Source: Escherichia phage forsur. Taken from it: a DNA stretch of 42,476 nucleotides. Within the stretch, counting starts at the first letter, position 1. The number at the start of each line of letters is the position of its first letter. The stretch is taken from the sequence record MN850617.1; one strand, 5' to 3'. The notes beneath the pieces are model-generated. The model was not told the DNA's origin. It saw only the letters and a list, made by a program, of their open reading frames with translations, and searched no databases. Below, piece by piece: positions 1,178-34,556 of this stretch. A program made the position numbers and the translations under genes.

Positions 1178-1706
1178 ACGTGGTGACAAGTTCTGTCTGG
1201 ATATCAACCGTGAATACCACAACGCTCGGCTCAATGAGCTGCGCGATAACGGTGTCATCCTAACCTACGACGAGCCTTACGATGTACCGAATGACAGTCG
1301 TGATTACTACACCTGCGTGTACAACGGCAAGACTGAGGTGCTGGTGCTGGAACCATATGAGGTGCAGGAAGTGCAGACGGCATTCATCCCGGTAGAGCCG
1401 GAGGCCGGGCCGGGCGGTATGAAGTATGACGGCGGCAAGCCACGCATGGCCCTGCTGCTCGACGGCTGCCCGAATGCACTGGAGGCTGTGGCCAGCGTGC
1501 TGACCTTCGGCGCTCAGAAGTATGCAGCTCACTCATGGCAGACTGTGCCGGAAGGTGAGGAACGTTACAAGTCAGCGCTGCTCCGGCACCTGACTGCGGT
1601 GGGTAAGGGCGAAGAACTCGACCCGGAATCTGGCCTGCACCATCTGGCGCACGCCGCTTGCAACGCACTGTTCATTCTCGAACTGGCATTAAGGAAAACT
1701 AAATGA
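1170..1706 (+). CDS. hypothetical protein with dATP/dGTP pyrophosphohydrolase-like N-terminal-type domain (tentative)
   Basis: ATG at 1170 after GGAGATAAAG; segment KYDGGKPRMALLLDGCPNALEAVASVLTFGAQKYAAHSW resembles, from memory, the KYD..GK..FGA.KY..NW signature of phage dNTP pyrophosphohydrolase N-domains. Domain call unverified. Confidence 0.5.
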   Translation: MPKRGDKFCLDINREYHNARLNELRDNGVILTYDEPYDVPNDSRDYYTCVYNGKTEVLVLEPYEVQEVQTAFIPVEPEAGPGGMKYDGGKPRMALLLDGCPNALEAVASVLTFGAQKYAAHSWQTVPEGEERYKSALLRHLTAVGKGEELDPESGLHHLAHAACNALFILELALRKTK

Positions 1707-1882
1707 GTGCTTTACTTTATGTGATTGCTATGGCATGGTTCGTATACTTCACGCTGGGTTGCCTGAACGCCTGCAAGTCATACAACCTGAGCCACTACCC
1801 GCAACGCGCCGGGTCTGCTGGCTTCATCGTATGGCTGCTGGTAGCTGTGCTGCCAACGTGGTTCATTTGTTACTTAGCATAG
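1703..1882 (+). CDS. small hydrophobic (membrane) protein, 59 aa
   Basis: ATG 1703 overlaps upstream stop (ATGA), RBS AAGGAAAA upstream; product MSALLYVIAMAWFVYFTLGCLNACKSY...FIVWLLVAVLPTWFICYLA has two hydrophobic segments. Absent from the ORF track, presumably because it is under 60 aa. Confidence 0.45.
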   Translation: MSALLYVIAMAWFVYFTLGCLNACKSYNLSHYPQRAGSAGFIVWLLVAVLPTWFICYLA

Positions 1883-1890
1883 GAGATACG

Positions 1891-2124
1891 ATGAGCAGAT
1901 ACCAACGAGCCATTGAGGATACCGTGGTCGAGAAAGGTGTGTGCGGGGAGTGCCACGGCTGTGGCACATTCACCAGCATGACCATTCGACACGAGCTTGT
2001 CCAAACTGAATGTGAAGCCTGTGGTGGCACAGGCGTGACTGACCCGGCACTGCAACGTTCAGTGCTGCGGGAACAAGGTATGCGCTGCCAAGTGCAGCCG
2101 GGCTATGACCAACCAACGGAGTAA
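1891..2124 (+). CDS. small zinc-finger protein (CxxC...CxxC)
   Basis: ATG 1891 preceded by AGGAG; product contains CGECHGCG and CEACGG Cys pairs. Confidence 0.6.
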   Translation: MSRYQRAIEDTVVEKGVCGECHGCGTFTSMTIRHELVQTECEACGGTGVTDPALQRSVLREQGMRCQVQPGYDQPTE

Positions 2125-4559
2125 TGATGGACTTACTTGCTGAGCAGATTCGACTGGAAGAAGAAGCGCGAGCCAGACACCGCGAGGGCTGGCTGGATAA
2201 TATCAGAGAGGCGTTGGCCGCTGGCCGGGCTGGTTCAGTACCATTGCTCCAGCGTATGATGGTTGAGGCGTATCCTCAAGTTGAAGCTGCGATGCAAGAA
2301 CTCCTGAATGAAACTGCCCGTGGCTATGGTGCGCAGTACCGGACATACATGCGGGAGCTGGGGCCGCGAGCTTGTGCCTCACTCGCGTTGAGCATGGCTG
2401 TGTCCGGTGCCGCTGCTGAGCAAGCAGTGCTTAACTTGCTCAAGGACATGGGCAAGGCTCTCATGGCTGAGGTGGTGTACCTTCGGGCCAAGGCTGCCGG
2501 GCCTGTGCAGGCTGCGTACATGGCCAAGGTTAAGACTGACGTTAAGCGCTCTCGTTCCAAGTCAGCTAACCATGTGTATAACAAGGCGAAAGCGTCGGCG
2601 TCTAACGTTGGCGTTGAGCTGGATATCCTGCCACAGCGTGCGCTCATCACCATTGGTAAGATGATGATGAAGTGCATCGAGCCTACTGGTCTGCTGGTCA
2701 CTATGCGTGTCGGCGGCAACCACCGTCAGCGCGGCACCGCGCACTTCGCACTGCATGAAGATGTGCTGGCAACGATGAAAGATTGGATGGACTTGCCACG
2801 GGCAGACGGCCTGTGCTGTCCTCCAATGATTATCCCGCCAGCGCAGATTGCACGCGATGGTCGTAGTGGTATGTGGCACTCGCCGGGGCAGGCTGCCATG
2901 TACCGGGCAATCAGCCGCATGAACCACCGTGGCTACCGTGCGCTGGGTGTTGACCCACTGCCCATCATAGAGCCGTGTATGATGCTCAGCAGCGTTCCGT
3001 ACCGAGTTAACCCAATGGTATTGGAGTTCCTGAGAACGAACCGTACAGGCGTTATGGGGCTGCCTGTGCCGCCTCGTGAGCCTAAGCTCCCGTTCACCAT
3101 CCCGGCTGGTGTCAGCTTCGCTCAGTACATTAGCAAGTTCCCACCAGAAATGCAGCAGCAGATGGAGTCGGAAGCCCACGAGTACAAGGTGAAGACCCGT
3201 CTGTATTACAACGAGCTGCGCAAGTTCACGTCACAAATGCTGGCGCTGAACGGTGCAGTCAAAGAGGCCGAGCGCTATGCGCCATACGATAGGGTATATC
3301 TCCCGACTTACGCCGATACGCGGGGCCGAATTTATTATTCTTCGACCCTTAACCCTCAGTCCATCGACGCGGTGCGAGCGCTGCTCGAACTTGCTGAACC
3401 AGTGGCTCTCGGAGACGAGGGGCTGTTCTGGCTCAAGGTACATGTTGCGAATTGTTTTGGATACGACGCCACCGACTTCGACGACCGGGCGGCGTGGACG
3501 GACAAAACACTCCCCCGACTACGTGAGGCGTGCCGTCTTCCAGAGGCATTTGATTCGTTCTGGTCAGAAGCCGATAGCCCTATCTCAGCGTGGGCTGCTG
3601 CTGTTGAACTCATTCGAGCTATCGACTCAGGAAGTCCTGAGACTTATCCCTGCCGAGTGGTTACGCAGTGGGACGCTACATGTTCAGGACTCCAGCACCT
3701 CAGTGCGATGCTACGCGATGAGGTTGGAGGTGCTGCTGTCAATCTTGTCGATAGCGTGGGAAGAAAAGCAGACATATATCTTAAGACGGCAGCAGCGGCG
3801 ATGCAGGCTCTTGAAGAAAGTGAAGCGGCTGCGCCGACGACAATGGGTTCGTGGCTTGTTTCCATCGGCATTGTTCGGGCTATGGCCAAGAAGCCAGTGA
3901 TGACCTACGTGTACGGGGCAACCCGGCACGGCATGGTTGACTACTACTGCCTGTATCTGCGTGAGAACCGGGTCAAGCTGCCGGAGGGTAAGAGCCTGCT
4001 GGAGTGTGCTCAGTTCATTGCTGAGTTTATGTGGGCTGCTATCCCCCGCGTCGTGCCGAAAGCTGCCGAGCTGATGGCATGGTTGCAGGCTATCGCAGTA
4101 GAGGCTGCGAGCATGGGTGAGTACGTGGAGTTCACTGCGCCGTCCGGTCTTCGTGTGGTCAATCTGTATCAGGCCAGCAAAGAGATTGCGCTGAACAACA
4201 TCAACCTCATGGGTATCCACGGCATCAAGCTGCGCGAGTATCTGGATAAGCCAGATGGTCGCAAGTGTGCCGCTGCGATTGCTCCGAATTTTGTACACGC
4301 CATGGATGCCAGTCACATGATGAAGGTTCTGTGGGAGATGTGGAATAACGGGGTATACATGGTATCCATCCACGACTCGTTCGGTGTAGCGGCAGCCCAT
4401 GCTGGGTTACTGCACAAGGTCATCCGTGAAAAGTTTGTGCAGATGTATGAGGAATGTGACCCTATTCAGCAACTTGCGTCAGCATATAACCGTGAAGCTC
4501 CAGCTCGCGGTAATCTGGACATCCAGCTTGTGAAGAAATCAAGCAAGTTCTTCTGCTGA
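2124..4559 (+). CDS. single-subunit DNA-dependent RNA polymerase (T7-like)
   Basis: 811-aa ORF; contains QWDATCSGLQHLSAM (cf. T7 RNAP motif A DGSCSGIQHF) and VSIHDSFGV (cf. T7 motif C IHDSFG). Position immediately upstream of the structural module. Confidence 0.95.
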   Translation: MMDLLAEQIRLEEEARARHREGWLDNIREALAAGRAGSVPLLQRMMVEAYPQVEAAMQELLNETARGYGAQYRTYMRELGPRACASLALSMAVSGAAAEQAVLNLLKDMGKALMAEVVYLRAKAAGPVQAAYMAKVKTDVKRSRSKSANHVYNKAKASASNVGVELDILPQRALITIGKMMMKCIEPTGLLVTMRVGGNHRQRGTAHFALHEDVLATMKDWMDLPRADGLCCPPMIIPPAQIARDGRSGMWHSPGQAAMYRAISRMNHRGYRALGVDPLPIIEPCMMLSSVPYRVNPMVLEFLRTNRTGVMGLPVPPREPKLPFTIPAGVSFAQYISKFPPEMQQQMESEAHEYKVKTRLYYNELRKFTSQMLALNGAVKEAERYAPYDRVYLPTYADTRGRIYYSSTLNPQSIDAVRALLELAEPVALGDEGLFWLKVHVANCFGYDATDFDDRAAWTDKTLPRLREACRLPEAFDSFWSEADSPISAWAAAVELIRAIDSGSPETYPCRVVTQWDATCSGLQHLSAMLRDEVGGAAVNLVDSVGRKADIYLKTAAAAMQALEESEAAAPTTMGSWLVSIGIVRAMAKKPVMTYVYGATRHGMVDYYCLYLRENRVKLPEGKSLLECAQFIAEFMWAAIPRVVPKAAELMAWLQAIAVEAASMGEYVEFTAPSGLRVVNLYQASKEIALNNINLMGIHGIKLREYLDKPDGRKCAAAIAPNFVHAMDASHMMKVLWEMWNNGVYMVSIHDSFGVAAAHAGLLHKVIREKFVQMYEECDPIQQLASAYNREAPARGNLDIQLVKKSSKFFC

Positions 4560-24494: not shown

Positions 24495-24983
24495 ATGAAA
24501 CTGTCTCGGCTTATGGCCGGGGCAGTCCTGTCACTGTCCTTGACTTTGACGGGCTGCTCCGCAACAAGCGCACTGTCTGCTGTAACCTCGGCTGTCTCTC
24601 CCAATAAGCCGGAACTAACGGCACAGGTTGGCGCAGAGAACACGAAACAGGGCATCGGCTTGACTGCGAAACAGTCCGACGAAACGAAGGTCGGTGACGT
24701 ATCTGGTAACGCGCAAGTGGATACCGCTAAACAGGGTAGTGATTCGACGACTGTGAAGGACGTCACAGGAGGCTCTGTAAACGCTTCTAAGCAGGGTTCG
24801 CAGATTACCAATGGAAACGTGCAGGCTAAGACTATCGTGGTCTCTCAGAGCGACCCACGCAGTCTCCTGTGGGCATTTGGCATGGGCCTTACTTGTATCT
24901 TAGGTCTGGTGATGTGGTTTGTACCATCTCCGTGGAAGAAGAAGGTGAAAGATGACGGAAGCAAAGAAGGAGCCAGCTCCTAA
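24495..24983 (+). CDS. lipoprotein with C-terminal transmembrane segment (unimolecular-spanin-like)
   Basis: N-terminus MKLSRLMAGAVLSLSLTLTGCS is a signal peptide with lipobox LTGC; C-terminus LLWAFGMGLTCILGLVMWFV is a hydrophobic helix followed by KKK; RBS AAGGGG upstream. Confidence 0.6.
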   Translation: MKLSRLMAGAVLSLSLTLTGCSATSALSAVTSAVSPNKPELTAQVGAENTKQGIGLTAKQSDETKVGDVSGNAQVDTAKQGSDSTTVKDVTGGSVNASKQGSQITNGNVQAKTIVVSQSDPRSLLWAFGMGLTCILGLVMWFVPSPWKKKVKDDGSKEGASS

Positions 24984-25335
24984 CATCCACTCGCGTATGG
25001 GCGCTGTGGAGGCTCGTATGCAATCCGTAGAAACACGCCTCGACAAACACGAGATTCAAATCGCCAACCTTGAGAAAGGTGACGCTGCTATGCTGGCCAA
25101 GCTATCGGAGAACGACTCCCGGTGGCTGGAGATTCAGCAGCAGCTCCGTGTCGTCGAGCAAATTCAGGACATTCAAAAGACTATGAGCCACATCGGTAAG
25201 CTGTTCTCTTACGCGGCTCACGCCGTCAAGTGGTGTCTCCTGACCGCTTCACTCGTTAGCGGTATCTATCTTGCGGTCAAGGCTGGCGACCTAACGGCGC
25301 TCCAGTCCTTTATCACAACGATTATGGGGATGTAA
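24952..25335 (+). CDS. holin candidate (coiled-coil N-terminal region, C-terminal TMD)
   Basis: 127 aa; hydrophobic segment VKWCLLTASLVSGIYLAV near the C-terminus; overlaps the lipoprotein gene and directly precedes the endolysin gene. Confidence 0.4.
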   Translation: MTEAKKEPAPNIHSRMGAVEARMQSVETRLDKHEIQIANLEKGDAAMLAKLSENDSRWLEIQQQLRVVEQIQDIQKTMSHIGKLFSYAAHAVKWCLLTASLVSGIYLAVKAGDLTALQSFITTIMGM

Positions 25336-25871
25336 TGACTAACTTTGAAATCTGTATGAAGTTCACCGGGCTGGCCGAGGGTGGATACACCAAGCTGCCC
25401 GGTGACACTGGAGGGGAAACCAACCATGGAATTAGTGACGCTCGTGATGGGAAGCTGGATGGCAGAGCTTGTGGTGTCCCTACTGGGCTTGGCGGCACTG
25501 TGTGCGTGCCTATCAAAGACCTCACCAAAGAGCAAGCCGAGGCAATCTATCGCCGGGACTACTACAGCCCCATCAGAGGTGACGAGCTTCACCCTGCGAT
25601 TGCATGTGCCGTGTTTGATTACGGCGTCAACTCCGGCATCTCCCGTGCTGCTAAAGCTCTACAGCGGGTATGCGGCGTTGCACAGGACGGGGACATTGGT
25701 ACTGTCACCTTGGAAGCAGCACAACGTCTGGAACCTCACGCCGCAGCAGCAGCCATCTGTGACCTTCGTATTGCGTTCCTAAAGGCTTCTAAAGCCCCGA
25801 CAGTCGTTCGGTATAGGGATGCCTTGGTTGCTCGTGCAAAACGCTGTAGCGCTTACTGTGCGACGCTGTAG
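25335..25871 (+). CDS. endolysin, GH108-type muramidase domain with peptidoglycan-binding-like C-terminal region
   Basis: N-terminus FTGLAEGGYTKLPGDTGGETNHGIS matches the recalled GH108 signature (EGGY...D.GG.T..GI); C-terminal AAKALQRVCGVAQDGDIGTVT resembles PG-binding repeats; no signal peptide. Confidence 0.8.
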   Translation: MTNFEICMKFTGLAEGGYTKLPGDTGGETNHGISDARDGKLDGRACGVPTGLGGTVCVPIKDLTKEQAEAIYRRDYYSPIRGDELHPAIACAVFDYGVNSGISRAAKALQRVCGVAQDGDIGTVTLEAAQRLEPHAAAAAICDLRIAFLKASKAPTVVRYRDALVARAKRCSAYCATL

Positions 25872-26039
25872 GGGCATCTGAAAGCTGACACATTGAACAG
25901 GCCGTGGGTGCAATACCCCGGCTTGAAAATTGAACGTTTATGCGTGGGCCTCCCTCGACCCGAATGACCGCGCGTACCCCCATGACGTGTGCGCGGATTA
26001 GCCTCGCGACGTGCGCGATATTGCTCGCGTGCGCTGCGC

Positions 26040-26450
26040 GGCGCGTCAAGAGGATTGCCTGCGTGCGGTATAGCTCGTGCGTGTCGCGTTTCATCGTCTG
26101 CCGTGTGGCGTGCTGTGCGCTGTCCTGCTGGCTGTGCTGTGCGGTGCTGTCCTATGGGGACGCTCTGCGCTGGCTGTGCTGTGCTGCGTGCTGCGCTCGG
26201 TCGGGCGGGTATCTGTCTCTTTTGCCGTGGTACGCTCTGCGCCGTGGTGGTGCTGTGTGGTGGTGGTGCTGCCGTGGTGCTGTCCTGTCTGCTGGTCTAC
26301 TGTCTGCGCCGCCAGCTCTGCGCGTCATGCTCTGCTACCTGCTGCTACTGTCCTACTGCGTTCACTGGCTGCCGCCTGTCATCCTGTCGGATTCCATCCG
26401 TTGCCGTTCCGCGCTCGCTTGTTTCGGCTGCGCCGCGCTCGCTCTGCGTA
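26040..26450. repeat. A-depleted (C/G/T only on + strand) low-complexity block with degenerate GCTG/CTGTG/GGTG repeats; candidate terminal-repeat region
   Basis: Adenine is nearly absent on the + strand over ~400 bp, so no + frame contains a stop; non-coding position between the last late gene and the early promoters. Confidence 0.6.
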
Positions 26451-26462
26451 TCTAGCGATACA

Positions 26463-26485
26463 TATCACTATAGTCACTTTCATAA
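26463..26485 (-). promoter_or_regulatory. inverted exact copy of the T7-class promoter-like element at 4585..4607 (would fire leftward into the A-depleted block)
   Basis: + strand TATCACTATAGTCACTTTCATAA is the reverse complement of 4585..4607 (23/23). Confidence 0.4.
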
Positions 26486-26499
26486 TTATCTATTGATAT

Positions 26500-26590
26500 C
26501 AGTAACTTATAACCTATCTGATAACGGTATCTATCCTATGCAATAACCTATTCAATCAAATATTTATTCCTAATGATTACAGTAACTTAT
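26500..26590. repeat. AT-rich segment with 11-bp direct repeat CAGTAACTTAT (26500..26510 and 26580..26590)
   Basis: Read directly; copies are 80 bp apart, each preceded by TGAT; candidate origin or packaging iterons. Confidence 0.4.
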
Positions 26591-26622
26591 CCACTATTTG
26601 AGCTATTCAGTGAAAATAAATC

Positions 26623-26651
26623 TTGCAATGCTGTTTGTGATTTGCTGTAAT
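26623..26651 (+). promoter_or_regulatory. host sigma70-type early promoter P1
   Basis: -35 TTGCAA (26623..26628), 17-bp spacer, extended -10 TGcTGTAAT (hexamer 26646..26651); A-rich UP-like tract upstream. Confidence 0.6.
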
Positions 26652-26726
26652 TCTCATCGCCGGGTAGCAGAACATCGCTACACGGTGGCAAGACGGTAAC
26701 ACTGCTCTTTAACAATCTGGAGTGTA

Positions 26727-26755
26727 TTGACAAGGCAAGCTCACTATGCTGTAAT
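26727..26755 (+). promoter_or_regulatory. host sigma70-type early promoter P2
   Basis: -35 TTGACA (26727..26732), 17-bp spacer, extended -10 TGcTGTAAT (hexamer 26750..26755). Confidence 0.65.
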
Positions 26756-26863
26756 GCTTCCAGTCAGCCAGACAAGCCAAACAGTCATGGATAAAGACGT
26801 TAAAACCCGCGCAGGCTAACTGGTACGGATTATTCATCTCAGAATGGGCGCTGAATAAAACGG

Positions 26864-26892
26864 TTGACAGGATGAAACGAGTATGCTGTAAT
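26864..26892 (+). promoter_or_regulatory. host sigma70-type early promoter P3
   Basis: -35 TTGACA (26864..26869), 17-bp spacer, extended -10 TGcTGTAAT (hexamer 26887..26892); AATAAAA upstream. Confidence 0.65.
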
Positions 26893-26944
26893 ACGCTCCA
26901 GATTGACAGGGCAAGCAAGCCTGACAGTCAGTAGTAAAAAGTAG

Positions 26945-26973
26945 TTGACAAGCTGAATACACTGTGTTGTAAT
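26945..26973 (+). promoter_or_regulatory. host sigma70-type early promoter P4
   Basis: -35 TTGACA (26945..26950), 17-bp spacer, extended -10 TGtTGTAAT (hexamer 26968..26973); GTAAAAAG upstream. Confidence 0.65.
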
Positions 26974-27451
26974 CAGCACCGAGTTGGAAGGATGCAAAAC
27001 ATCCTGCTCTGAGTGAACGCAAACTGGCCGCGTAGTGTCACGGCTCACTGGGTATCCGCCGCAGGTTGGAACTGGGTGAGGCATCGCCGAAAGGCAACGG
27101 TATCGCAACAATGCTAACGCCGTAGGGGTAGCGCCTGATGCAAGGTAACGGAGAAGCGCGATAGACGCAGCGCAGTATCAGTACAATACCAAACGTCTTA
27201 TAAGGCGCGGAGTATAGCGGGTAGGTAGTCAAACGGCTTGTTAGCTGGCAACGGTGAGCAAGATACGCGACGGACTGCTGGAAGACTCCTGAGAGTGGAT
27301 GCAGACAATATCCACAGCGCGAAATGGGCGGGGCGATTTTTCAGGGTAGTGAATCCGACAAGCCAATCAATGCCACTGAGTGCAGACTGTACGGCGCGTC
27401 ACAATGGGTTCACTATCCACCTGAAAATAGCCAACAACTGGAGAAATAACT

Positions 27452-27844
27452 ATGTACCGTATCTATGCAAGCGCATATCGTCAGAACAACGCTGAGTGTG
27501 TTAATCTGGCGCTTCATTGCAAGGCACTGCGAACGGTGCAGGATATGTTCGGAGTGATTCCGGTCACACTGACAGGCAAGTTCGACAATGCGTATGAGTT
27601 AAGCATGGTCTTTCCTGTCGATGGAATCTACGAAATCAGACAGGCTGTTAAGCTGTTCTGTAAAGCCTTTGAACAGGACTGCATCATGGTAGTGACCGAT
27701 GACAATGATGCAATCTTCATGGATTCACCATATCCGGGCAAGCCTGCTGGCAAGTTTGTCAGCAAGACAGAAGCGGAGATGGAAGCCGGGCAGTTCACTG
27801 CTTGGACTTACGATGGTGAGCAATTTTGGGTAGTGGAGGCGTAA
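27452..27844 (+). CDS. hypothetical early protein (130 aa), first gene after the leader
   Basis: ATG 27452 with GGAG 8 nt upstream; ORF in track. Confidence 0.7.
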   Translation: MYRIYASAYRQNNAECVNLALHCKALRTVQDMFGVIPVTLTGKFDNAYELSMVFPVDGIYEIRQAVKLFCKAFEQDCIMVVTDDNDAIFMDSPYPGKPAGKFVSKTEAEMEAGQFTAWTYDGEQFWVVEA

Positions 27845-27845
27845 T

Positions 27846-27917
27846 ATGTTCACTGCACTCTGTGTGATAGCGGCGGCGTGCTGGCTGATTGACCAGCGCC
27901 TGTCTAAGCGAGCCTGA
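27846..27917 (+). CDS. tiny hydrophobic peptide (23 aa), speculative
   Basis: ATG follows upstream stop by 1 nt with GGAGG 8 nt upstream; MFTALCVIAAACWLIDQRLSKRA. Confidence 0.25.
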   Translation: MFTALCVIAAACWLIDQRLSKRA

Positions 27918-27918
27918 T

Positions 27919-28002
27919 ATGTGGGACTTACTGGTAGCGTTGTTCTGGTTTGTCTTTGCAGGCTTGTGGATTTACTGGTTGACTCGTCCCAAATTATGGT
28001 GA
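27919..28002 (+). CDS. tiny hydrophobic peptide (27 aa), speculative
   Basis: MWDLLVALFWFVFAGLWIYWLTRPKLW; weak RBS. Confidence 0.25.
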   Translation: MWDLLVALFWFVFAGLWIYWLTRPKLW

Positions 28003-28008
28003 CTGCCT

Positions 28009-28030
28009 AATGCGTCTTGCGAGGCGCATT
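28009..28030 (+). promoter_or_regulatory. intergenic hairpin with UUGCGA hexaloop (copy 1 of 4)
   Basis: AATGCGTC-TTGCGA-GGCGCATT; 8-bp stem including one G-U pair. Confidence 0.45.
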
Positions 28031-28066
28031 GTGAAGTAACCAACCAACAACCCGACGAGGTGTATC

Positions 28067-28594
28067 ATGACTACTGTTAAATATACTGCATTCAAAGATG
28101 CTGCGGCGCTGGACAAAGCTATCGAAGCGACTGTCAAAAAGGCGCACTCACTCCGTAACGATATTCAGAATGTTGCGGTCGGTATTATCCTGCACGCTTA
28201 CCATCACGGCGACTACACTCGTGCTGAGTCGTTCACTCACCAACTGGGTGATGGCGTCCGTGGTAAGGCACTGGTTGACTGGTTCGTCCAGTTCGGCGGC
28301 CTGATTGTGGGTGAGCATGAAGATGGCAAGTCCGGCTTCGTTGGCTGGAAGGGTGCCGACTTCATCAAAGAGAACATCGACAAGGCGAAAGCCACGATGT
28401 GGTGGACTTGCAAGCCAGAAGCGGCCTTTGATGGCTTCGACCTGCAAGATGCGCTCGAAAAGCTGATTGCCAAAGCTGAAAAGGCAATGAACAAGGCGAA
28501 CGAGCTGCGCCACGAAGGGCGCGATGAGGATGCGAACAAGGTTGTCGTGCCTCAGAACGTGCTGGACGGCCTGCGCAAGCTGAAAGCTGCGTAA
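28067..28594 (+). CDS. hypothetical early protein (175 aa)
   Basis: ORF in track; RBS GAGG upstream. Confidence 0.7.
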   Translation: MTTVKYTAFKDAAALDKAIEATVKKAHSLRNDIQNVAVGIILHAYHHGDYTRAESFTHQLGDGVRGKALVDWFVQFGGLIVGEHEDGKSGFVGWKGADFIKENIDKAKATMWWTCKPEAAFDGFDLQDALEKLIAKAEKAMNKANELRHEGRDEDANKVVVPQNVLDGLRKLKAA

Positions 28595-28607
28595 GCGGGA
28601 TTGACTC

Positions 28608-28629
28608 AAGCCATCTTGCGAGGTGGCTT
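28608..28629 (+). promoter_or_regulatory. intergenic hairpin with UUGCGA hexaloop (copy 2 of 4)
   Basis: AAGCCATC-TTGCGA-GGTGGCTT; followed by GGCAATTCTGCC at 28633..28644. Confidence 0.45.
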
Positions 28630-28667
28630 TATGGCAATTCTGCCCCAACAATTACGGAGTATCATCC

Positions 28668-28952
28668 ATGACCACTAAAACTGTTCTGGCCTACGTCACC
28701 AAGAAAGGCGAAGAAGTGTACGGCTATGCTGTGTCTATCGACGGCGGCCACAACTACCTGCATCACGTTCGTGAAGAAGGTGAACCGACTGACCACGATG
28801 GCATTCTGGAAACGCTGAAAGGCATCCCGCTGCCGCACGAAATCATCTGTATGCTGGCTGGCCAGACGGAAGATGACCTGCAACTGCGTCACGGCGACGA
28901 CCTGACCATTCAGGGTATCGGCAGCTTCGAAGCTGACGTAGACGACGAATAA
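28668..28952 (+). CDS. hypothetical early protein with acidic C-terminal tail (...GSFEADVDDE)
   Basis: ATG 28668 preceded by GGAG; ORF track starts it earlier (GTG 28623) across the hairpin, which is unlikely. Confidence 0.7.
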   Translation: MTTKTVLAYVTKKGEEVYGYAVSIDGGHNYLHHVREEGEPTDHDGILETLKGIPLPHEIICMLAGQTEDDLQLRHGDDLTIQGIGSFEADVDDE

Positions 28953-28962
28953 GCGTTGTCCT

Positions 28963-28986
28963 GCTGCATCCTTGCGAGGGTGCAGC
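28963..28986 (+). promoter_or_regulatory. intergenic hairpin with UUGCGA hexaloop (copy 3 of 4)
   Basis: GCTGCATCC-TTGCGA-GGGTGCAGC; followed by GGCAATACTGCC at 28989..29000. Confidence 0.45.
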
Positions 28987-29025
28987 GTGGCAATACTGCC
29001 TTATTCCAATCTGAGGATTAATCCT

Positions 29026-29106
29026 ATGTCTACACTGAAACTGGTACTGATTTCTAACATCGCTGCTGACGCTTTCGACGCTGATGACGTGGACTTCTCT
29101 GCGTGA
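29026..29106 (+). CDS. tiny acidic peptide (26 aa), possible remnant of the acidic-tail family
   Basis: ATG 29026 with GAGG 8 nt upstream; MSTLKLVLISNIAADAFDADDVDFSA. Confidence 0.3.
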   Translation: MSTLKLVLISNIAADAFDADDVDFSA

Positions 29107-29113
29107 TACCTTA

Positions 29114-29135
29114 CTGCCTCGTTGCGACGGGGCAG
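29114..29135 (+). promoter_or_regulatory. intergenic hairpin with UUGCGA hexaloop (copy 4 of 4)
   Basis: CTGCCTCG-TTGCGA-CGGGGCAG; followed by GGCAATCATGCC at 29139..29150. Confidence 0.45.
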
Positions 29136-29171
29136 TGCGGCAATCATGCCCAACCTAACTGGAGATTTACC

Positions 29172-29453
29172 ATGGCTACAATCAACGTGTATTCCCTGAG
29201 CAACGGCGGTCTGGCATTCATCGCTGGTGATAAGGTAGACGAAGCGCCGTCGCTGGGCGTGACGCCGAAACCGGAGGCCAGCCGTGATGATGTTATCGCG
29301 GAAGTCAAGGGTGCGCTGGAAGACCTCGGCGGTCTGCTGTTCGTCCTGAATGGTGGCAAGCTGTCGGTTGAAAAGCTGGACGCGCTGGAACCTGTCTTTG
29401 TTGAGAGCTTCGAAGCTGACAACATCGACCTCGCTGCTTTCGCTGACGCCTAA
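29172..29453 (+). CDS. small acidic early protein, tandem paralog A (MATINVY...SFEADNIDLAAFADA)
   Basis: ATG 29172 preceded by GGAG; alignable end-to-end with 29791..30099. Confidence 0.75.
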   Translation: MATINVYSLSNGGLAFIAGDKVDEAPSLGVTPKPEASRDDVIAEVKGALEDLGGLLFVLNGGKLSVEKLDALEPVFVESFEADNIDLAAFADA

Positions 29454-29491
29454 GCATAACCCGAAACCCACAACCAAAGAGGACAATCAAC

Positions 29492-29722
29492 ATGGCTAAG
29501 TTTGAACTGGTACGCTTCATTGACCCGAACGATGGCGAAGAAACCTTCGCGCAGTTTGCTGATGACCGCTCGCTGGTCGCCATCTACAACACTGAGCGCA
29601 CGGCGCGGCGCTGGTTCAAGGAAGACGACGACATGGACAGCATCGAAGAAGCGCTGGCTATGCCGGGCTACGCTGAGGCTGTCGAGGCAGCACTGAAAGG
29701 CGAAGTCGTAGCGACTGCGTGA
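29492..29722 (+). CDS. hypothetical small acidic protein (76 aa)
   Basis: ORF in track; RBS AAGAGGA upstream. Confidence 0.7.
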   Translation: MAKFELVRFIDPNDGEETFAQFADDRSLVAIYNTERTARRWFKEDDDMDSIEEALAMPGYAEAVEAALKGEVVATA

Positions 29723-29790
29723 TTTCTGTCAGCCCATCCATAGCGGTGGGCTGTAGGGCAATCATGCCACAACAACTGAGGGTATACACC

Positions 29791-30099
29791 ATGGCAACTA
29801 TCAACGTCTACAAAACTATCACTGGCTCACTGGTATTCGTAGTGGGTGAACTGCGTGAAGATGCACCAATCGTTGGCGTGTCTCTGCGTGAAGGGGCAAC
29901 CGAGGCTGACGCCATCGCTGAGATTCGTCAGAACATTGAGAACCTCGGCGGCCTGTTCTTCCTGCTGCAAGGTGGCAGCCTGAACCTCGCTAAGTTGCAG
30001 GAGCATGAGCCTGTACTCGTGACCAGCTTCGAAGCGGAAGATGTAGACGCCAGTGACTTCGAAGCCAGCCGCGCTGACGAAGAAGAAGCAGGCGAGTAA
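29791..30099 (+). CDS. small acidic early protein, tandem paralog B (MATINVY...SFEAEDVDASDFEAS...)
   Basis: ATG 29791; upstream hairpin 29730..29753 and GGCAATCATGCC at 29757..29768 mirror paralog A. Confidence 0.75.
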   Translation: MATINVYKTITGSLVFVVGELREDAPIVGVSLREGATEADAIAEIRQNIENLGGLFFLLQGGSLNLAKLQEHEPVLVTSFEAEDVDASDFEASRADEEEAGE

Positions 30100-30212
30100 T
30101 GAGCGCCATCGAGGTGGCACTGATGTTGGGCTGTCATGCAGGTATTGGCAGCCTCGTCATCTACATCGTTGGCGCGGCACGCAAATCATACGATAGGAGA
30201 ACCAAGCTATGA
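30099..30212 (+). CDS. tiny hydrophobic peptide (37 aa), speculative
   Basis: ATG overlaps upstream stop (TAATG); MSAIEVALMLGCHAGIGSLVIYIVGAARKSYDRRTKL. Confidence 0.3.
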   Translation: MSAIEVALMLGCHAGIGSLVIYIVGAARKSYDRRTKL

Positions 30213-30385
30213 AGTTTGCAGTATCGCGCAGCGGTGCAAGCCATGCGGCACACAAGTTGCACTTCCTGTTCCACTCGCTGTACCTTACAGCGGCTGCGAT
30301 GGAGGGTCACTTGTTCTATAGCCTCATGGCTGGCGGCACCTTACTGTTCATGGTTGGCACGGCGGTGCTGGGCAATGAACATTAA
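30209..30385 (+). CDS. small hydrophobic protein (58 aa), speculative
   Basis: ATG overlaps upstream stop (ATGA), AGGAG upstream; contains LMAGGTLLFMVGTAVLG. Confidence 0.3.
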   Translation: MKFAVSRSGASHAAHKLHFLFHSLYLTAAAMEGHLFYSLMAGGTLLFMVGTAVLGNEH

Positions 30386-30548
30386 TCTGTTACAACGGGT
30401 CAAGGGTATGGAGCGTCGGCACTGGGAGACGGCCATCATCCTTAAGGTAAGCATAAGCGCTGGACTGGCTGCTGCTTATTTCCTGCCAACCACCGCAGCA
30501 ATAGCCGTTGGTATCAGCACCAACCTGCTATGGTTGTGGAAGTTGTAA
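30375..30548 (+). CDS. small membrane protein (57 aa)
   Basis: In-frame ATG within track ORF 30216..30548; contains AIAVGISTNLLWLW; followed by terminator-like hairpin. Confidence 0.4.
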   Translation: MNINLLQRVKGMERRHWETAIILKVSISAGLAAAYFLPTTAAIAVGISTNLLWLWKL

Positions 30549-30562
30549 GCAGTGGATTACTC

Positions 30563-30590
30563 AAGGCTGTCCAGCGGGTAGCCTTTTTGA
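30563..30590 (+). terminator. intrinsic terminator candidate
   Basis: AAGGCTGTCC-AGC-GGGTAGCCTT stem-loop followed by TTTTGA. Confidence 0.5.
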
Positions 30591-30612
30591 AATCCATTGA
30601 CGAGAGGGGAGC

Positions 30613-30951
30613 ATGGCACTACATCGAGTGAAGGTAATGCGTGGGCCTGACTTCGAAGACGGGCAAGAGATTGCTGCATTGCAGTACCGCTTGCCGTCCG
30701 GTCAGGAGGGGCTGGTCATCATTGACCAGATTGAAATCATGGGTGAGCACATGCTGATTGCTGATGCCACCGATGAGCAAATCATTGAGCGCTGCAAGGC
30801 ATACGCCGGGGGCAGACCGTTCATCATCGACCTGATGAATGACCAGCACATCAATGCTGATGGTTCGCTGCTGTTCAAGGCATGGCTTTATGCTCTCACA
30901 ACAATCTACGAAGGGGAGATGTATCTCTTTGGCGTAGACAACGAGGGTTAA
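30613..30951 (+). CDS. hypothetical protein (112 aa)
   Basis: ORF in track; RBS GAGAGGGGAG upstream. Confidence 0.7.
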   Translation: MALHRVKVMRGPDFEDGQEIAALQYRLPSGQEGLVIIDQIEIMGEHMLIADATDEQIIERCKAYAGGRPFIIDLMNDQHINADGSLLFKAWLYALTTIYEGEMYLFGVDNEG

Positions 30952-30954
30952 ATC

Positions 30955-31269
30955 ATGAAGGTAAGCAAAGGATATCTGTTCGTGCTGTTGATGCTGGCCA
31001 CCCTGTATCTCAGCACCGTGCATGTGGCACTGGCAGCCACTGTGGAGAAGGTGCATTTGGATGCGTATGACGTACCGCTGGGCGCACCTGATGGACAGGT
31101 GTACTCTGCTTGCGTCATTGACCTACGCAAAGGCGGCACTGTCAGCACACTGGCCTACGTTGGTGAGTGTGAGGATGTGCTGCCACACCTGAAAGAAAAG
31201 CTGGAGCATGATGGCGTGACCACCATCGTGACTCTCTCAATCAACGGTCATAACATCAACCTAACGTGA
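30955..31269 (+). CDS. secreted/periplasmic small protein with N-terminal signal peptide
   Basis: MKVSKGYLFVLLMLATLYLSTVHVALA-ATVEK: charged N-region, hydrophobic core, ALA-A cleavage-like site; mature part has two Cys. Confidence 0.7.
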   Translation: MKVSKGYLFVLLMLATLYLSTVHVALAATVEKVHLDAYDVPLGAPDGQVYSACVIDLRKGGTVSTLAYVGECEDVLPHLKEKLEHDGVTTIVTLSINGHNINLT

Positions 31270-31277
31270 GGTTTTAT

Positions 31278-31529
31278 ATGAGCACTCAAGCTAAGATTGT
31301 AATTCTGCGCAACGACTATGGCCGTCCTACTCCGTTCGGCACCTTCTGTCCGTTCCTCGATACCATTGAGGGTAAAGAGTACGATGTACTCATCCTTGAG
31401 CCGGGCGAAGTGGACGCCGAAGGGGATGAAGTTGACAAGCGCTCGGTCAGTTTCCGCGATGAAGTGGGTGACTTAGCTGGCGCACACATTGACTACCATG
31501 AAGGTAAGTCATTCAAGTTCGTCGAGTAA
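31278..31529 (+). CDS. hypothetical protein (83 aa)
   Basis: ATG 31278 with GAGG 6 nt upstream. Confidence 0.65.
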   Translation: MSTQAKIVILRNDYGRPTPFGTFCPFLDTIEGKEYDVLILEPGEVDAEGDEVDKRSVSFRDEVGDLAGAHIDYHEGKSFKFVE

Positions 31530-31587
31530 TAATCTACAGCCTCTGCTTGCTGGGGCTGTGTCACTATCAAATAAACGAGAGGCAAAC

Positions 31588-31833
31588 ATGGCTAAGTATG
31601 ACGTATACAAAGACGGTGAGGGTGACTGGACTATCGTACCGGAAGGGCAGCAGATTGTAGCCCCGGTCGATGTGATTGCAATGAACGGCGCGGCGGCTGA
31701 GACACTGGCTGATGTGCAGCGCATCGCAACCACCAAGCGTGCAGGCTTCGAAGCTAACCGCACGCATGTCAAGTCGCAGGCTGTCATCAATCGCTTCGGC
31801 CCGTATGAACTGGCCGGGACTATTGAAGTGTGA
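31588..31833 (+). CDS. hypothetical protein (81 aa)
   Basis: ATG 31588 with GAGAGG upstream; preceded by hairpin 31537..31558 and motif TGTCACTATCAAA. Confidence 0.65.
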   Translation: MAKYDVYKDGEGDWTIVPEGQQIVAPVDVIAMNGAAAETLADVQRIATTKRAGFEANRTHVKSQAVINRFGPYELAGTIEV

Positions 31834-31890
31834 TAAGCTACTGCCCCTGCGTGCCGGGGGCAGTGTCATTATCAAACGATGGAGGTGGGT

Positions 31891-32175
31891 ATGGTACTGG
31901 CATCTGAATCAATCATTGAACACGCTGCTGATATCCGGGCGGCGGTTGAAAAGCGCGGGGTCGCAGCTACCCGTGGTCATCTCTCTGGCAACGGTGGCCT
32001 GCGTGGTCACAGCGTAGGCGGTGTGTTTCCCTGCGTTATCTTTGCTCGTGGCAATCCTAATGTGAAGCTCGACTGGTGCTTCCTCACACCAGCGGGTGAT
32101 GAGTTCGATGGCTTCATTAGTTATGAGGATGCGTATGCAGCCGCGCAGGAATGGCTGGAGAAAAGAGAGGTGTAA
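31891..32175 (+). CDS. hypothetical protein (94 aa)
   Basis: ATG 31891 with GGAGG upstream; preceded by hairpin 31841..31863 and motif TGTCATTATCAAA. Confidence 0.65.
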   Translation: MVLASESIIEHAADIRAAVEKRGVAATRGHLSGNGGLRGHSVGGVFPCVIFARGNPNVKLDWCFLTPAGDEFDGFISYEDAYAAAQEWLEKREV

Positions 32176-32176
32176 C

Positions 32177-32470
32177 ATGAGCAGAAGTGCTAAGTGGGAT
32201 GCGCTGGTACAGTGGGTGAAGGATAGCTTCGGGCCACCGCCTACCCCTGACCACGATGACTCGCCGTTCCAATACGTCGAGAAGAAAACGCAGGAGCTTA
32301 AGCTGGGCGACTACGTTGTAGCATACGGTGGATACATCCAGCGCATCGGTGCCGTTGAATATGATGGCAGCCGACTGGTTGTAACCAAGCTGGGGCATGG
32401 CCCTGAACGTGAATGGCAGGCGTTTGAAGACGACGAGTTCACAATCCGCACACTGAAAGAAGGAAAGTAA
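32177..32470 (+). CDS. hypothetical protein (97 aa)
   Basis: ATG 32177 with AGAGAGG upstream. Confidence 0.65.
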   Translation: MSRSAKWDALVQWVKDSFGPPPTPDHDDSPFQYVEKKTQELKLGDYVVAYGGYIQRIGAVEYDGSRLVVTKLGHGPEREWQAFEDDEFTIRTLKEGK

Positions 32471-32472
32471 TC

Positions 32473-32988
32473 ATGGCTATTGACTTTAAATTATTCAACG
32501 CCGAGCAACTTGAAACTGTCAAGTCTCTGGCTGAGTTCATCGACAACCACCCGGAGCTGAGCGAACTGGTTGAGTTCAAGGGTGGCTACCTGCCGAAGCA
32601 AAGTTACATCGGCGCGGTGCGTAAAGGTCGTGAAGGTATGCTGGATATTATTCCGCAGACCAGAACCGGGGCGCTGCTGGCACGCAACGTCAGCGTGCTG
32701 ATTGGCATGAACGTGAAGCGTGCCAGTGAGCAGGGCAATGCGGCTGAGGTTGAGACGCTGCGCCTGACAGGTACGCTCGCAGCTAAGGCCATGTCGGAAC
32801 CGGACATTGCCGAGCGCTATCATGACTGGTACATGGCGTGCGCTAATGTGCCAAGCGATATCAGTGAGACGACGCTGGGCCTGCTGTTCGTAGGTGAGTT
32901 CATCGACGCAACCATCCGTGCAGTCAGCGGTCAGGTGGGTGAATTAATTCAGGCAATGCAGCAGGCCAAGAATGCAACACGTCACTAA
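32473..32988 (+). CDS. hypothetical protein (171 aa)
   Basis: ORF in track; RBS GAAGGAAAG upstream. Confidence 0.7.
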   Translation: MAIDFKLFNAEQLETVKSLAEFIDNHPELSELVEFKGGYLPKQSYIGAVRKGREGMLDIIPQTRTGALLARNVSVLIGMNVKRASEQGNAAEVETLRLTGTLAAKAMSEPDIAERYHDWYMACANVPSDISETTLGLLFVGEFIDATIRAVSGQVGELIQAMQQAKNATRH

Positions 32989-33213
32989 GCTCACCGTAAC
33001 CAAATCACCCACCGGATTATTCTGGTGGGTAGTTGATAAGCTGCAACCAAATAAACCTTTGGCTGTGCGTGATACAAAGTGGGAAGCCGAGAGTAAACTC
33101 GAAGACCTTCAACGTATTATGCGGAATGTTATTCCAGCTTAGCCATCTACTCATGCCAGTTATTATTTAGCTGGCATTATGAAGGTGACTATATTGGACA
33201 ACCCGGAGGAAAT

Positions 33214-33381
33214 ATGTTTCGTGTATTAATGTTATTCGTACTCGTCGTTATATTGTGGGGCGCGTTATGGGTAGGCGTTGCCTATTTAATTCAGCCTTAC
33301 ATTGGCGAACAGCTTACCTCTGTAATTGGTACGCTGCTTGGGCTTTGTTGTTGGCGCAGTTGGTATGTCCAAGTGCATTGA
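33214..33381 (+). CDS. small membrane protein (55 aa)
   Basis: ATG 33214 with GGAGG upstream; MFRVLMLFVLVVILWGALWVGVAYLIQPY... has two hydrophobic helices; preceded by promoter-like GGTGACTATAT. Confidence 0.45.
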   Translation: MFRVLMLFVLVVILWGALWVGVAYLIQPYIGEQLTSVIGTLLGLCCWRSWYVQVH

Positions 33382-33408
33382 CATTGGCTGGAGTAAGGGG
33401 TGGATTAA

Positions 33409-33849
33409 ATGGTAAAGCCAAAGTACAAAGTCGGGGATGAAATCGTGGGCGACGATGGCACTGGCACCCGGTCGGGTAAGCTGGGTATCATCGCATGGGT
33501 TAACCCTGACCGCCGAGCGTGGGAACGCAGCGGGGAAACTCGTTACATCGTGAGCTGGATTGGCGAGCGCTTGAATGCGCAGCCGGATATCAGCCACTAC
33601 AAATCTGACTGGCTGGAGGACAACACCAGTCTGGTCAGTACCCCGGCGCAGAAGCGCGGTCGGTTCATGTGTCTGCTTGAGGGCGGCAGCACGCCGCCGA
33701 AGATTGAACACATCACTGAACGTGAAGCGCGTGATGAAGCTGAGCGTCTGGCAGAACGCCACGGTGGTACTGTCCGTGTGCTGCAAGTTGTGGCCAGCGT
33801 GAAGATGAAGAAGAAGATTCAGTACATACCGGACTGGGATAACGAATGA
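33409..33849 (+). CDS. hypothetical protein (146 aa)
   Basis: ORF in track; RBS AAGGGGTGG upstream. Confidence 0.7.
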   Translation: MVKPKYKVGDEIVGDDGTGTRSGKLGIIAWVNPDRRAWERSGETRYIVSWIGERLNAQPDISHYKSDWLEDNTSLVSTPAQKRGRFMCLLEGGSTPPKIEHITEREARDEAERLAERHGGTVRVLQVVASVKMKKKIQYIPDWDNE

Positions 33850-34556
33850 TGAAATCAGTGAGCAACGACGAGTGGCCGGAGCTGGCGAAGCGTCTGCCTG
33901 TAGGACAAAAGCGAAGGACGTTTCACAGTTGCTCGCGGTCATTCAACAAGACCAACTTCGAGTATGGCCGTGCGCCGGATTACATCTGGTGCAAGTGCCA
34001 CCGCTGTGGGTACAGCCAGAAGCGTGACCTGACTCACGCTGTGTATGTGCCGCCAGCCGAGGTGCAGGTGAAGGTGCCGACTGATGTGGTGCCTATCACT
34101 GAGGTGATTGCCAAGCAGCCACGACTGCTGCTGCCAGTGCTGGAGCGGGAGAACCTGATGCCGCACCTGTCACTCCTGACTGCAAGCCCAACGTATGGCA
34201 GGCTGTATCTGCCGGACGACACGGGCAGCTACTGTGGTCTGGACTACACCGGGCGGCAGTTCATCCCGTGGCGCTCGCCGCATAAGCATAGCTTGGCGAT
34301 GAAGGTCAGTCCTCGTGGTGACGCGGAGACTAACTGCCTCTGGATTTATGGTGAGGTGGATGAGTATCTCCAGCAGGTGCGCGATGGTGGTAACTGTGCA
34401 TTCGTTCCGAACGTGGATGATGCAACGTTGCAGGCTCTGGTCAGTGTGACGCTGGCGTATGGGTACAACCTCGTAGTCGTCTGCCACCACCCAAGCGCCC
34501 AACGTATCCGCAGGGAGCTGCGTATTGTGGGGCGTGTGCAAATCGTAGGAGAGTGA
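33846..34556 (+). CDS. DNA primase-like protein (putative; Cys/His cluster)
   Basis: 236 aa directly upstream of the helicase gene, with CSRSF...CKCHRCG zinc-binding-like cluster; call is by position plus motif, weak. Confidence 0.5.
   Translation: MMKSVSNDEWPELAKRLPVGQKRRTFHSCSRSFNKTNFEYGRAPDYIWCKCHRCGYSQKRDLTHAVYVPPAEVQVKVPTDVVPITEVIAKQPRLLLPVLERENLMPHLSLLTASPTYGRLYLPDDTGSYCGLDYTGRQFIPWRSPHKHSLAMKVSPRGDAETNCLWIYGEVDEYLQQVRDGGNCAFVPNVDDATLQALVSVTLAYGYNLVVVCHHPSAQRIRRELRIVGRVQIVGE

Follow-up and report, generated by a model that had tools for sequence, protein, structure and literature searches.

Small hydrophobic ORFs in the early region of phage forsur

Do the very short open reading frames (ORFs) lying between the larger genes in the early region of Escherichia phage forsur encode membrane proteins, and what could such peptides do for the phage? 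The DNA analysed here, which we will call the window, is sequence record MN850617.1, that is, the complete genome (42,476 bp, circularly permuted) of this T7-like coliphage of the genus Bonnellvirus (Autographiviridae). A sequence-only reading had picked out seven ORFs in it (starting at positions 27846, 27919, 30099, 30209, 30375, 33214 and 1703), each coding for one or two hydrophobic helices, and had suggested superinfection exclusion or host-membrane targeting as possible roles. We consider it probable that the seven are genuine small inner-membrane protein genes of an accessory kind, with the products of three of them (C, A and B, at 30099-30548) acting as a membrane complex. Taken separately, five are very likely to be real small membrane-protein genes by the comparisons given below; C (30099) is quite likely to be one as well, and for 27919 the evidence leans that way. 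To any one specific function we would give a slim chance at best. No part of phage genomes is annotated as poorly as the small membrane proteins, which gene callers skip.

Forsur is among the nine Danish wastewater bonnellviruses listed by Olsen et al. (2020). The only megablast matches to the region 26400-34000 were Bonnellvirus phages, the closest being Escherichia phages glasur (97.8% identity) and usur, and the match coordinates in glasur place the left genome end at about position 26463 of the window. All genes in the window are on the + strand. Six of the small ORFs are found 1.4-6.9 kb from this left end and the remaining one, 1703, sits just 5' of the gene for the phage RNA polymerase, all seven being upstream of that gene. 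We found no literature on Bonnellvirus early genes or on these proteins beyond genome announcements, and no ribosome profiling or proteomic data for the genus.

The seven ORFs are all present where they had been placed, on the + strand and with ATG starts. Their lengths (in the order above) are 23, 27, 37, 58, 57, 55 and 59 amino acids (aa), so that the size range is 23-59 aa and not the 23-58 aa originally given. Every one contains at least one stretch of 15 residues with a mean Kyte-Doolittle hydropathy of at least 1.6, and two such stretches each were found in ORF 1703 and in the repaired version of the 33214 protein (see below). The ribosome-binding sites (GGAGG, AGGAG, AAGGA) and start/stop overlaps (ATGA, TAATG) noted earlier can likewise be read in the sequence, the small ORFs being packed against their neighbours with overlapping or abutting stop and start codons. 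As a control for chance, a hydropathy as high as this was found in ca. 11% of the ATG ORFs with 20-70 aa (either strand), against 7 of the ca. 21 small + strand ORFs that fill gaps between long genes (binomial P ca. 0.006). The conservation in relatives is a stronger argument against chance than this hydropathy count.

Conservation of the frames in related genomes had been proposed as a check, and our codon comparison covered the early regions of 13 annotated relatives and several metagenomic contigs. Frames, ATG codons and hydrophobic helices are kept in the relatives and the changes are mostly synonymous, which bears out the idea of small membrane peptides in the early region. For 27846, A (30209), B (30375), 1703 and the 66-aa family to which 33214 belongs, both frame and start are preserved, with an excess of synonymous changes specific to that frame; the coding signal is weaker for C, and the data for 27919 are thin. 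To treat the seven as a single class would, moreover, conceal that they belong to at least five unrelated families with differing distributions.

By exact-sequence look-up, four of the peptides are already deposited in GenBank as "hypothetical protein", i.e., forsur_5 (1703), forsur_35 (30099), forsur_36 (30209) and forsur_45 (33214), two of them known from a single contig only, and small hydrophobic early proteins as such are familiar in phages. The other three ORFs (27846, 27919 and 30375) are unannotated in close relatives; 27846 and 27919 are annotated in no matching phage record and were never called as proteins among ca. 15 billion predicted proteins. Scans of all seven peptides against Pfam, PHROGs, NCBIfam and PADLOC gave no annotated family at E < 0.01, and profile searches against the PDB returned noise only. 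Sub-threshold matches (Colicin_V, Holin_BlyA, Wzy_C_2, GarD, MarC, ZorA and phrog_14261, the latter at E = 0.013) were rejected as driven by composition. What is new, then, is an unannotated genus-wide 23-aa gene, a linked A, B and C module with diagnostic residues that crosses phage genera and host classes, the diagnosis of a frameshift in forsur_45, and a set of natural deletion variants.

The C-A-B module

The three ORFs at 30099-30548 are as follows:

30099..30212, + strand: gene C (forsur_35 / glasur_8; 37 aa), a single transmembrane helix with a basic tail; exact sequence deposited
30209..30385, + strand: gene A (forsur_36 / glasur_9; 58 aa), a His-rich helix and then a transmembrane one; exact sequence deposited
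30375..30548, + strand: gene B, 57 aa, a two-helix hairpin; unannotated in glasur and usur

The genes are contiguous: C is joined to the gene upstream through TAATG, A to C through ATGA (with an AGGAG Shine-Dalgarno sequence), and B overlaps A by 11 nucleotides (nt). All three are annotated in phage Lidtsur, and C and A, not B, in glasur. Compared with Lidtsur, the ratio of nonsynonymous to synonymous change (pN/pS) is 0.15 for A and 0.19 for B, against 0.6-8 when the DNA of A and B is read in the other two frames (2-8 for A alone). Comparison of A and B with the contigs L022, L023 and L025 gave 0.20-0.29, and the overall ranges are 0.15-0.29 for A and 0.19-0.27 for B.

Gene A was found directly 5' of B in 14 out of 14 lineages examined (the window, glasur, Lidtsur, L022, L023, L025, L027, LIMElight, VPv81, L028, L030, L031, L032 and L033), with junctions that go from the 11-nt overlap to a 4-nt gap. 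As a module we understood an A motif (H-x3-H-x2-Y-[LMF]-x6-E-[GAS]-H, then a hydrophobic helix) directly 5' of a B motif (K-x8-A-x-[YF]-[FW]-[LV]-P ... N-[LM]-[LVI]-W-[LI]-[WY]-[KR]), and both occur in the window, with the 11-nt overlap, as well as in the 13 other lineages. Among the more distant examples, tblastn identified ORF4 of Pantoea phage LIMElight as a homologue of A (49% identity, E = 3e-8) and its ORF5 as a homologue of B (54% identity, E = 1e-9). These true homologues (CBW54762 and CBW54763), which are hypothetical proteins, lie side by side and overlap by 4 nt in the early region of a phage from another genus of the Autographiviridae; unlike forsur, LIMElight has no annotated C-like ORF upstream of its A. 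This type of A-B pair has never been described as a family, and neither Pfam nor PHROGs holds a model for it. In Variovorax phage VPv81 (L021), A (2310-2489) and B (2486-2623) overlap by ATGA and are found 3' of an unannotated 302-aa ORF. Profile searches retrieved 16 small homologues of B from 5.8 billion proteins and 11 of A from 1.84 billion representatives, the latter search giving no link to a named family. A single-helix, C-like ORF of 30-44 aa is directly 5' of A in the window, Lidtsur, L022, L023, L025, L027 and L030; these ORFs, homologues or positional analogues of C, are often missed by gene finders. The module thus appears to span enterobacterial phages of Bonnellvirus and Limelightvirus, a Variovorax phage and metagenomic phage-like contigs.

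An alignment of 11 sequences shows that H15, H22, Y25, L26 and H34 of A are invariant and H18, E32 and G33 nearly so. In B the invariant residues are K24, A33, P38, N50 and W53, within a YFLP...NLLWLWK frame. AlphaFold2 models A as one long helix (residues 7-55; predicted local distance difference test score, pLDDT, 85) and B as a helical hairpin (3-36 and 39-56; pLDDT 84). In Foldseek searches of the BFVD the model of A found nothing and that of B had a single confident match, the uncharacterised LIMElight ORF5 (probability 1.00; E = 4.7e-3), fold matches for helical hairpins of this size being in any case meaningless. A similarity of B to CydH/YnhF (E = 0.55) was discarded as composition noise.

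Taken together, C, A and B would be one translationally coupled unit, a linked module marked by diagnostic residues. We infer a heteromeric membrane complex of the three proteins as the most economical reading of their strict adjacency, their translational coupling and the polar residues in their hydrophobic segments.

A natural deletion touches this module. In usur the segment corresponding to window 29259-30366 is missing, with loss of C and most of A; B is kept and retains the original 11-nt overlap. The overlapping ORF is now usur_47 (32 aa; 3516-3614 of L003), in which the first 28 codons of a paralogous early gene beginning MATINVY... (described below) are fused to the last four codons of A (GNEH). 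It follows that neither C nor A, at the least, is needed for plaque formation on MG1655.

Two mini-genes before a conserved RNA hairpin

Near the left genome end two even smaller ORFs lie between the first annotated gene and an RNA hairpin:

27452..27844, + strand: S-adenosylmethionine (SAM) lyase gene (Pfam S-AdoMet_lyase, E = 3e-27), annotated in relatives as anti-restriction SAMase
27846..27917, + strand: 23-aa mini-gene, one hydrophobic helix (MFTALCVIAAACWLIDQRLSKRA), kept in relatives and unannotated
27919..28002, + strand: 27-aa mini-gene, one very hydrophobic, Trp-rich helix (MWDLLVALFWFVFAGLWIYWLTRPKLW), an indel module of ca. 82 nt
27997..28042 (core 28008-28031), + strand: RNA hairpin, fold energy -21.6 kcal/mol, z = -2.1, 6-7 nt after the last mini-ORF stop

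The SAM lyase gene is the leftmost annotated coding sequence of the genome. ORF 27846 follows its stop codon as TAAtATG, with GGAGG 6 nt upstream, and 27919 follows 27846 as TGAtATG. Of 19 Bonnellvirus records, 18 contain 27846, and none of these has an annotated feature at the matching place. It is the sole frame open across all eight distinct sequences, its variable columns fall 8, 5 and 14 times at codon positions 1, 2 and 3, Ser20 is encoded by TCT in one group of sequences and AGC in the other, and pN/pS is ca. 0.13-0.33. In phage HHU8 a clean deletion has removed 27846 alone, leaving the hairpin in place. ORF 27919 has a much narrower distribution: it was found, at 100% aa identity and unannotated, in glasur, usur, ROV85 and LF82-23 only, and most relatives are without it. 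Where it differs from LF82-23, at three positions, the change is always synonymous. Identity to LF82-23 is 96-100% over the block 27919-28066 against 82-90% for the flanking genes, and a recent exchange of this block could possibly account for part of the conservation. On balance, the comparison lends moderate support to 27919 as a coding sequence.

The hairpin itself is conserved, and its stem reads AATGCGTC/GGCGCATT in forsur and ATAGCGTC/GGCGCTAT in relatives, i.e., two compensatory pair swaps, and it is 100% identical to LF82-23. Its outer stem includes the final codons of 27919. The spacing of 6-7 nt between stop codon and hairpin is the same in three configurations: 27846 plus 27919, 27846 alone, and an unrelated ORF in two more distant Bonnellvirus-like contigs. 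In the latter (L022 3214-3279; L023 377-442) a 21-aa hydrophobic mini-ORF (MTHLEIIVYVVFLCVLFRVFG), missed by gene finders, has an ATGA overlap with the SAM lyase stop codon, the same conserved hairpin 3' of it and a pN/pS of 0.34. The arrangement invites comparison with leader peptides, in that a short ORF stops 6-7 nt before a covarying hairpin, and yet here the peptide sequence is conserved as well. Given its location 3' of the SAM lyase gene and the mini-ORFs, these would form one unit upstream of the hairpin, and the hairpin may be the boundary of a processing unit.

Hairpins of similar size and shape are present at four further intergenic sites (28596-28665, 28952-29025, 29100-29172 and 29722-29792), three of which share a CUUGCGAGG-type or GUUGCGACG loop with that at 27997-28042. 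Across the five, four have (C)UUGCGAGG-type or GUUGCGACG loops, the stems are GC-rich and 9-11 bp long, several have a second outer stem ending in GGCAAU...GCC, and fold z-scores go from -1.8 to -4.0. Rfam gave no family match anywhere in the window and no convincing terminator was found in 26000-34000, where the consensus scan gave fewer signals than in shuffled sequence. These hairpins may be RNase III-type processing sites or some other punctuation of the early transcript.

A frameshifted allele and the ORF before the RNA polymerase gene

The last two small ORFs each code for proteins that have, or had, two hydrophobic helices:

33214..33381, + strand: truncated 55-aa allele (forsur_45) of a 66-67-aa two-helix protein, from an alignment with 13 relatives
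33338..33339, + strand: extra T (CTGCTTGGG in forsur; CTGC-TGGG or CTGC-TTGG in relatives) that shifts the 33214 frame
1703..1882, + strand: 59-aa gene, two transmembrane helices (forsur_5), between dATP/dGTP diphosphohydrolase-like and zinc-ribbon genes
2124..4559, + strand: RNA polymerase gene

ORF 33214, which has a GGAGG Shine-Dalgarno sequence, had been taken for a plain 55-aa ORF. The ORF does exist, but as a frameshifted allele: 13 of 13 relatives have an intact ORF of 66-67 aa with a second hydrophobic helix, a W(I/V)(K/R)W end and a stop codon that overlaps the ATG of the next gene (ATGGTAA). The forsur product has lost half of the second helix and the coupling to the downstream gene, and its 55-aa sequence is a singleton cluster in the protein collection, known from one contig. 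Once the frame is repaired, the protein is 98.5% identical to that of usur, and pN/pS in the 66-aa family is 0.21-0.52. The alignment points to a frameshift-truncated copy of a genus-wide 66-aa two-helix protein, or possibly to an error in the record.

ORF 1703 has AAGGA and an ATGA overlap with the gene upstream. It bears a "hypothetical protein" annotation in glasur, RZ4, aldrigsur and Kc261, and its pN/pS is 0.17-0.24. A two-helix variant with 49% identity occupies the same ATGA-coupled position in HHU8 and others, and LF82-23 is without 1703. The gene 5' of it (1101-1706) codes for the N-terminal domain of a dATP/dGTP diphosphohydrolase (PF18909, E = 4e-34) and is labelled 'putative phosphodiesterase' in relatives.

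Proposed role and alternative explanations

Several of these genes have been lost in nature: usur is without C and most of A, HHU8 without 27846, LF82-23 without 1703 and most relatives without 27919. Every gene that could be examined for loss is thus missing from at least one viable relative, and on this ground we regard them as accessory. In the mechanism that we propose, the small proteins would be made early, from polycistronic transcripts of the host polymerase and by translational coupling, and would insert into the host inner membrane. Early expression by the host polymerase would here be as in phages with a phiKMV-type gene order. The roles would be accessory ones in the interaction with the host, acting on functions of its envelope rather than in core replication. 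C, A and B would join, in about equal amounts, into a small heteromeric membrane complex that is stabilised or activated by polar residues that are predicted to lie in or beside the membrane helices of A (His15, His22, His34 and the near-invariant Glu32) and B (Lys24 and Asn50). Its most likely activity would be to bind a host envelope protein or to alter membrane permeability or energisation to the benefit of the phage. Exclusion of a secondary infection, as first suggested for these ORFs, is a plausible role among others and has no specific support; exclusion proteins such as T4 Imm and Sp or HK97 gp15 showed no homology at E < 0.01 in the four family libraries.

It is tempting to go one step further and to see in C-A-B an inner-membrane micro-complex in which the three His and the Glu of A, with the Lys and Asn of B, serve as ligands of a metal or cofactor or as the lining of an ion or proton pathway, an idea that we hold as speculative and rather unlikely. 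Equally doubtful is the suggestion that early in infection such a micro-complex re-sets membrane energisation or blocks a host envelope machine or the entry of competing phage DNA. If a cofactor-binding or ion-conducting complex were real, it would be a new mechanism of early host takeover and a new class of phage membrane module; if not, a useful correction of the annotation is still gained. The module is in any case a testable lead. As candidates we would single out the A-B(-C) module, without known relative, and the genus-wide 23-aa peptide gene coupled to the anti-restriction SAM lyase. Usur, HHU8, LF82-23 and forsur are natural, isogenic-like variants that could be compared for superinfection exclusion, host range and counter-defence.

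A number of observations weigh against this picture of small membrane-protein genes with a C-A-B complex at their centre. C is weakly constrained (pN/pS 0.54-0.65), and the evidence for 27919 amounts to three synonymous changes within a block that was possibly exchanged recently. The case for complex formation comes from gene linkage only. A few distant homologues (P0048, P0054 and P0055) have another residue in place of one of the invariant His of A, and A itself, modelled as a single 49-residue helix, could have one or two membrane spans. Finally, a simple consensus scan of 26000-34000 found no + strand sigma-70 promoter, and because of this we infer early transcription from gene order alone.

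The two mini-genes before the hairpin could also be chiefly translated spacers, whose peptides have little or no function: a ribosome stopping 6-7 nt before the hairpin would open or mask it and thereby adjust RNase III-type processing, the stability of the mRNA or the expression of the 175-aa gene downstream. The constancy of that distance in three configurations, the compensatory changes and full identity of the hairpin to LF82-23 against 82-90% in the flanks, and the inclusion of the last codons of 27919 in the outer stem all fit such a role. A pure spacer, however, would not need to be a hydrophobic helix again in the unrelated ORF of L022 and L023, nor would it account for the conservative changes, the TCT/AGC switch at a conserved Ser and the pN/pS of ca. 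0.13-0.34, and HHU8 has the hairpin without 27846. That the peptides are conserved, and that the unrelated ORF at this site again codes for a hydrophobic helix, indicates that the peptides count, and we regard the spacer explanation as unlikely. Somewhat less so, although still on the improbable side, is that the 55-aa form of 33214 is a sequencing or assembly error and that forsur really encodes the intact 66-aa protein. The truncated sequence is confined to one contig, its extra T is absent from 13 of 13 relatives, those with 98% identity included, and the repaired frame nearly matches the usur protein; on the other hand, the change is T to TT and not in a long homopolymer, where indel errors concentrate, and this region has further real indels between forsur and its closest relatives.

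Two more general alternatives remain to be weighed against genuine accessory membrane-protein genes. That some of the small proteins are lysis-timing factors (holins, antiholins or pinholin-like) is suggested by their size, one- or two-helix topology and charged ends, as in class II/III holins, and by a weak match of the 66-aa protein to Pfam Holin_BlyA (E = 0.088, 13.2 bits with a cut-off of 27). But all seven are upstream of the RNA polymerase gene, at a circular distance of 9-19 kb from the endolysin; besides a GH108 endolysin, the lysis cassette (24495-25871) has two membrane proteins of its own; and no holin family was above threshold in Pfam and nothing significant in PHROGs. Given the position and the separate cassette we rejected the holin reading, which is very unlikely. 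More improbable still is that some or all of the ORFs are chance open frames in intergenic DNA that yield no product. They are indeed very short, ca. 11% of random small ORFs in the genome are as hydrophobic, no gene finder called 27846 or 27919 among the ca. 15 billion proteins, and 27919 has little independent comparative evidence. Chance frames would not be expected to show the frame-specific conservation, third-position bias and contrast with off-frame controls described above, the homologues in other phage genera, which have 28-55% identity and an identical gene order, and the Shine-Dalgarno sequences with coupled start and stop codons.

Comparison with known systems

T4 Imm is a small, early, envelope-located superinfection-exclusion protein, and with Spackle it represents the kind of role first proposed for the forsur ORFs: both come from a virulent phage, are small, early and located in the envelope, and act on the envelope of the host. 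Spackle is a periplasmic inhibitor of the gp5 lysozyme (PMC7677548). Neither has sequence or profile similarity to the forsur ORFs, in which nothing indicates a lysozyme-type target. Gp11 of Staphylococcus phage PhiNM1 is described as a small early membrane protein that blocks cell division via peptidoglycan synthesis (PMC11237401). It is a precedent for host-membrane targeting by a small membrane protein of the early region, but host and phage lineage are unrelated and the family-library scans revealed no homology.

Among the small membrane regulators and subunits of bacteria, AcrZ, MgrB, KdpF, CydX and CydH have less than 60 aa and one helix or a hairpin, and they act by binding larger membrane proteins. 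Like A and B, they rely on a few conserved polar residues within the membrane; they differ in being encoded by the host and have no homology to A or B. Holins and pinholins (phage 21 S21, T7 gp17.5) are of 50-70 aa with one or two transmembrane helices and charged termini. The forsur ORFs, in contrast, are outside the lysis cassette and away from the endolysin, with no holin profile above threshold.

Other features of the genome

In the early region, a 26-aa ORF at 29026-29106 (MSTLKLVLISNIAADAFDADDVDFSA) is what remains of a gene of ca. 111 aa, of which usur (usur_48) and glasur (glasur_4) have the intact form; in forsur ca. 240 nt have been deleted internally, between short DADDV/DDDDV-coding repeats. 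What looks like a small family of tandem genes is found at 29172-29453 and 29791-30099, and also at 28668-28952: these paralogous early genes start MATINVY..., have acidic FEA(D/E)..D tails and each follow one of the intergenic hairpins. The 104-aa early protein encoded at 30955-31269 has a signal-peptide-like start (MKVSKGYLFVLLMLATLYLSTVHVALA|ATVEK) and no Pfam match, which suggests an exported or membrane-anchored early protein.

Long ORFs rich in Cys, Ala and Arg run in three + frames (25940-26546) across the GC-rich, repetitive junction of the right and left genome ends; they are probably not genes but non-coding DNA of the terminal repeat. Three genes make up the lysis cassette (24495-25871). 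One codes for a 162-aa protein that combines a lipoprotein signal (LTGC) with a C-terminal membrane helix and resembles unimolecular spanins in this, an overlapping one for a protein of 127 aa, also with a C-terminal membrane helix and with a weak XhlA match, and the third for the GH108 endolysin (25335-25871).

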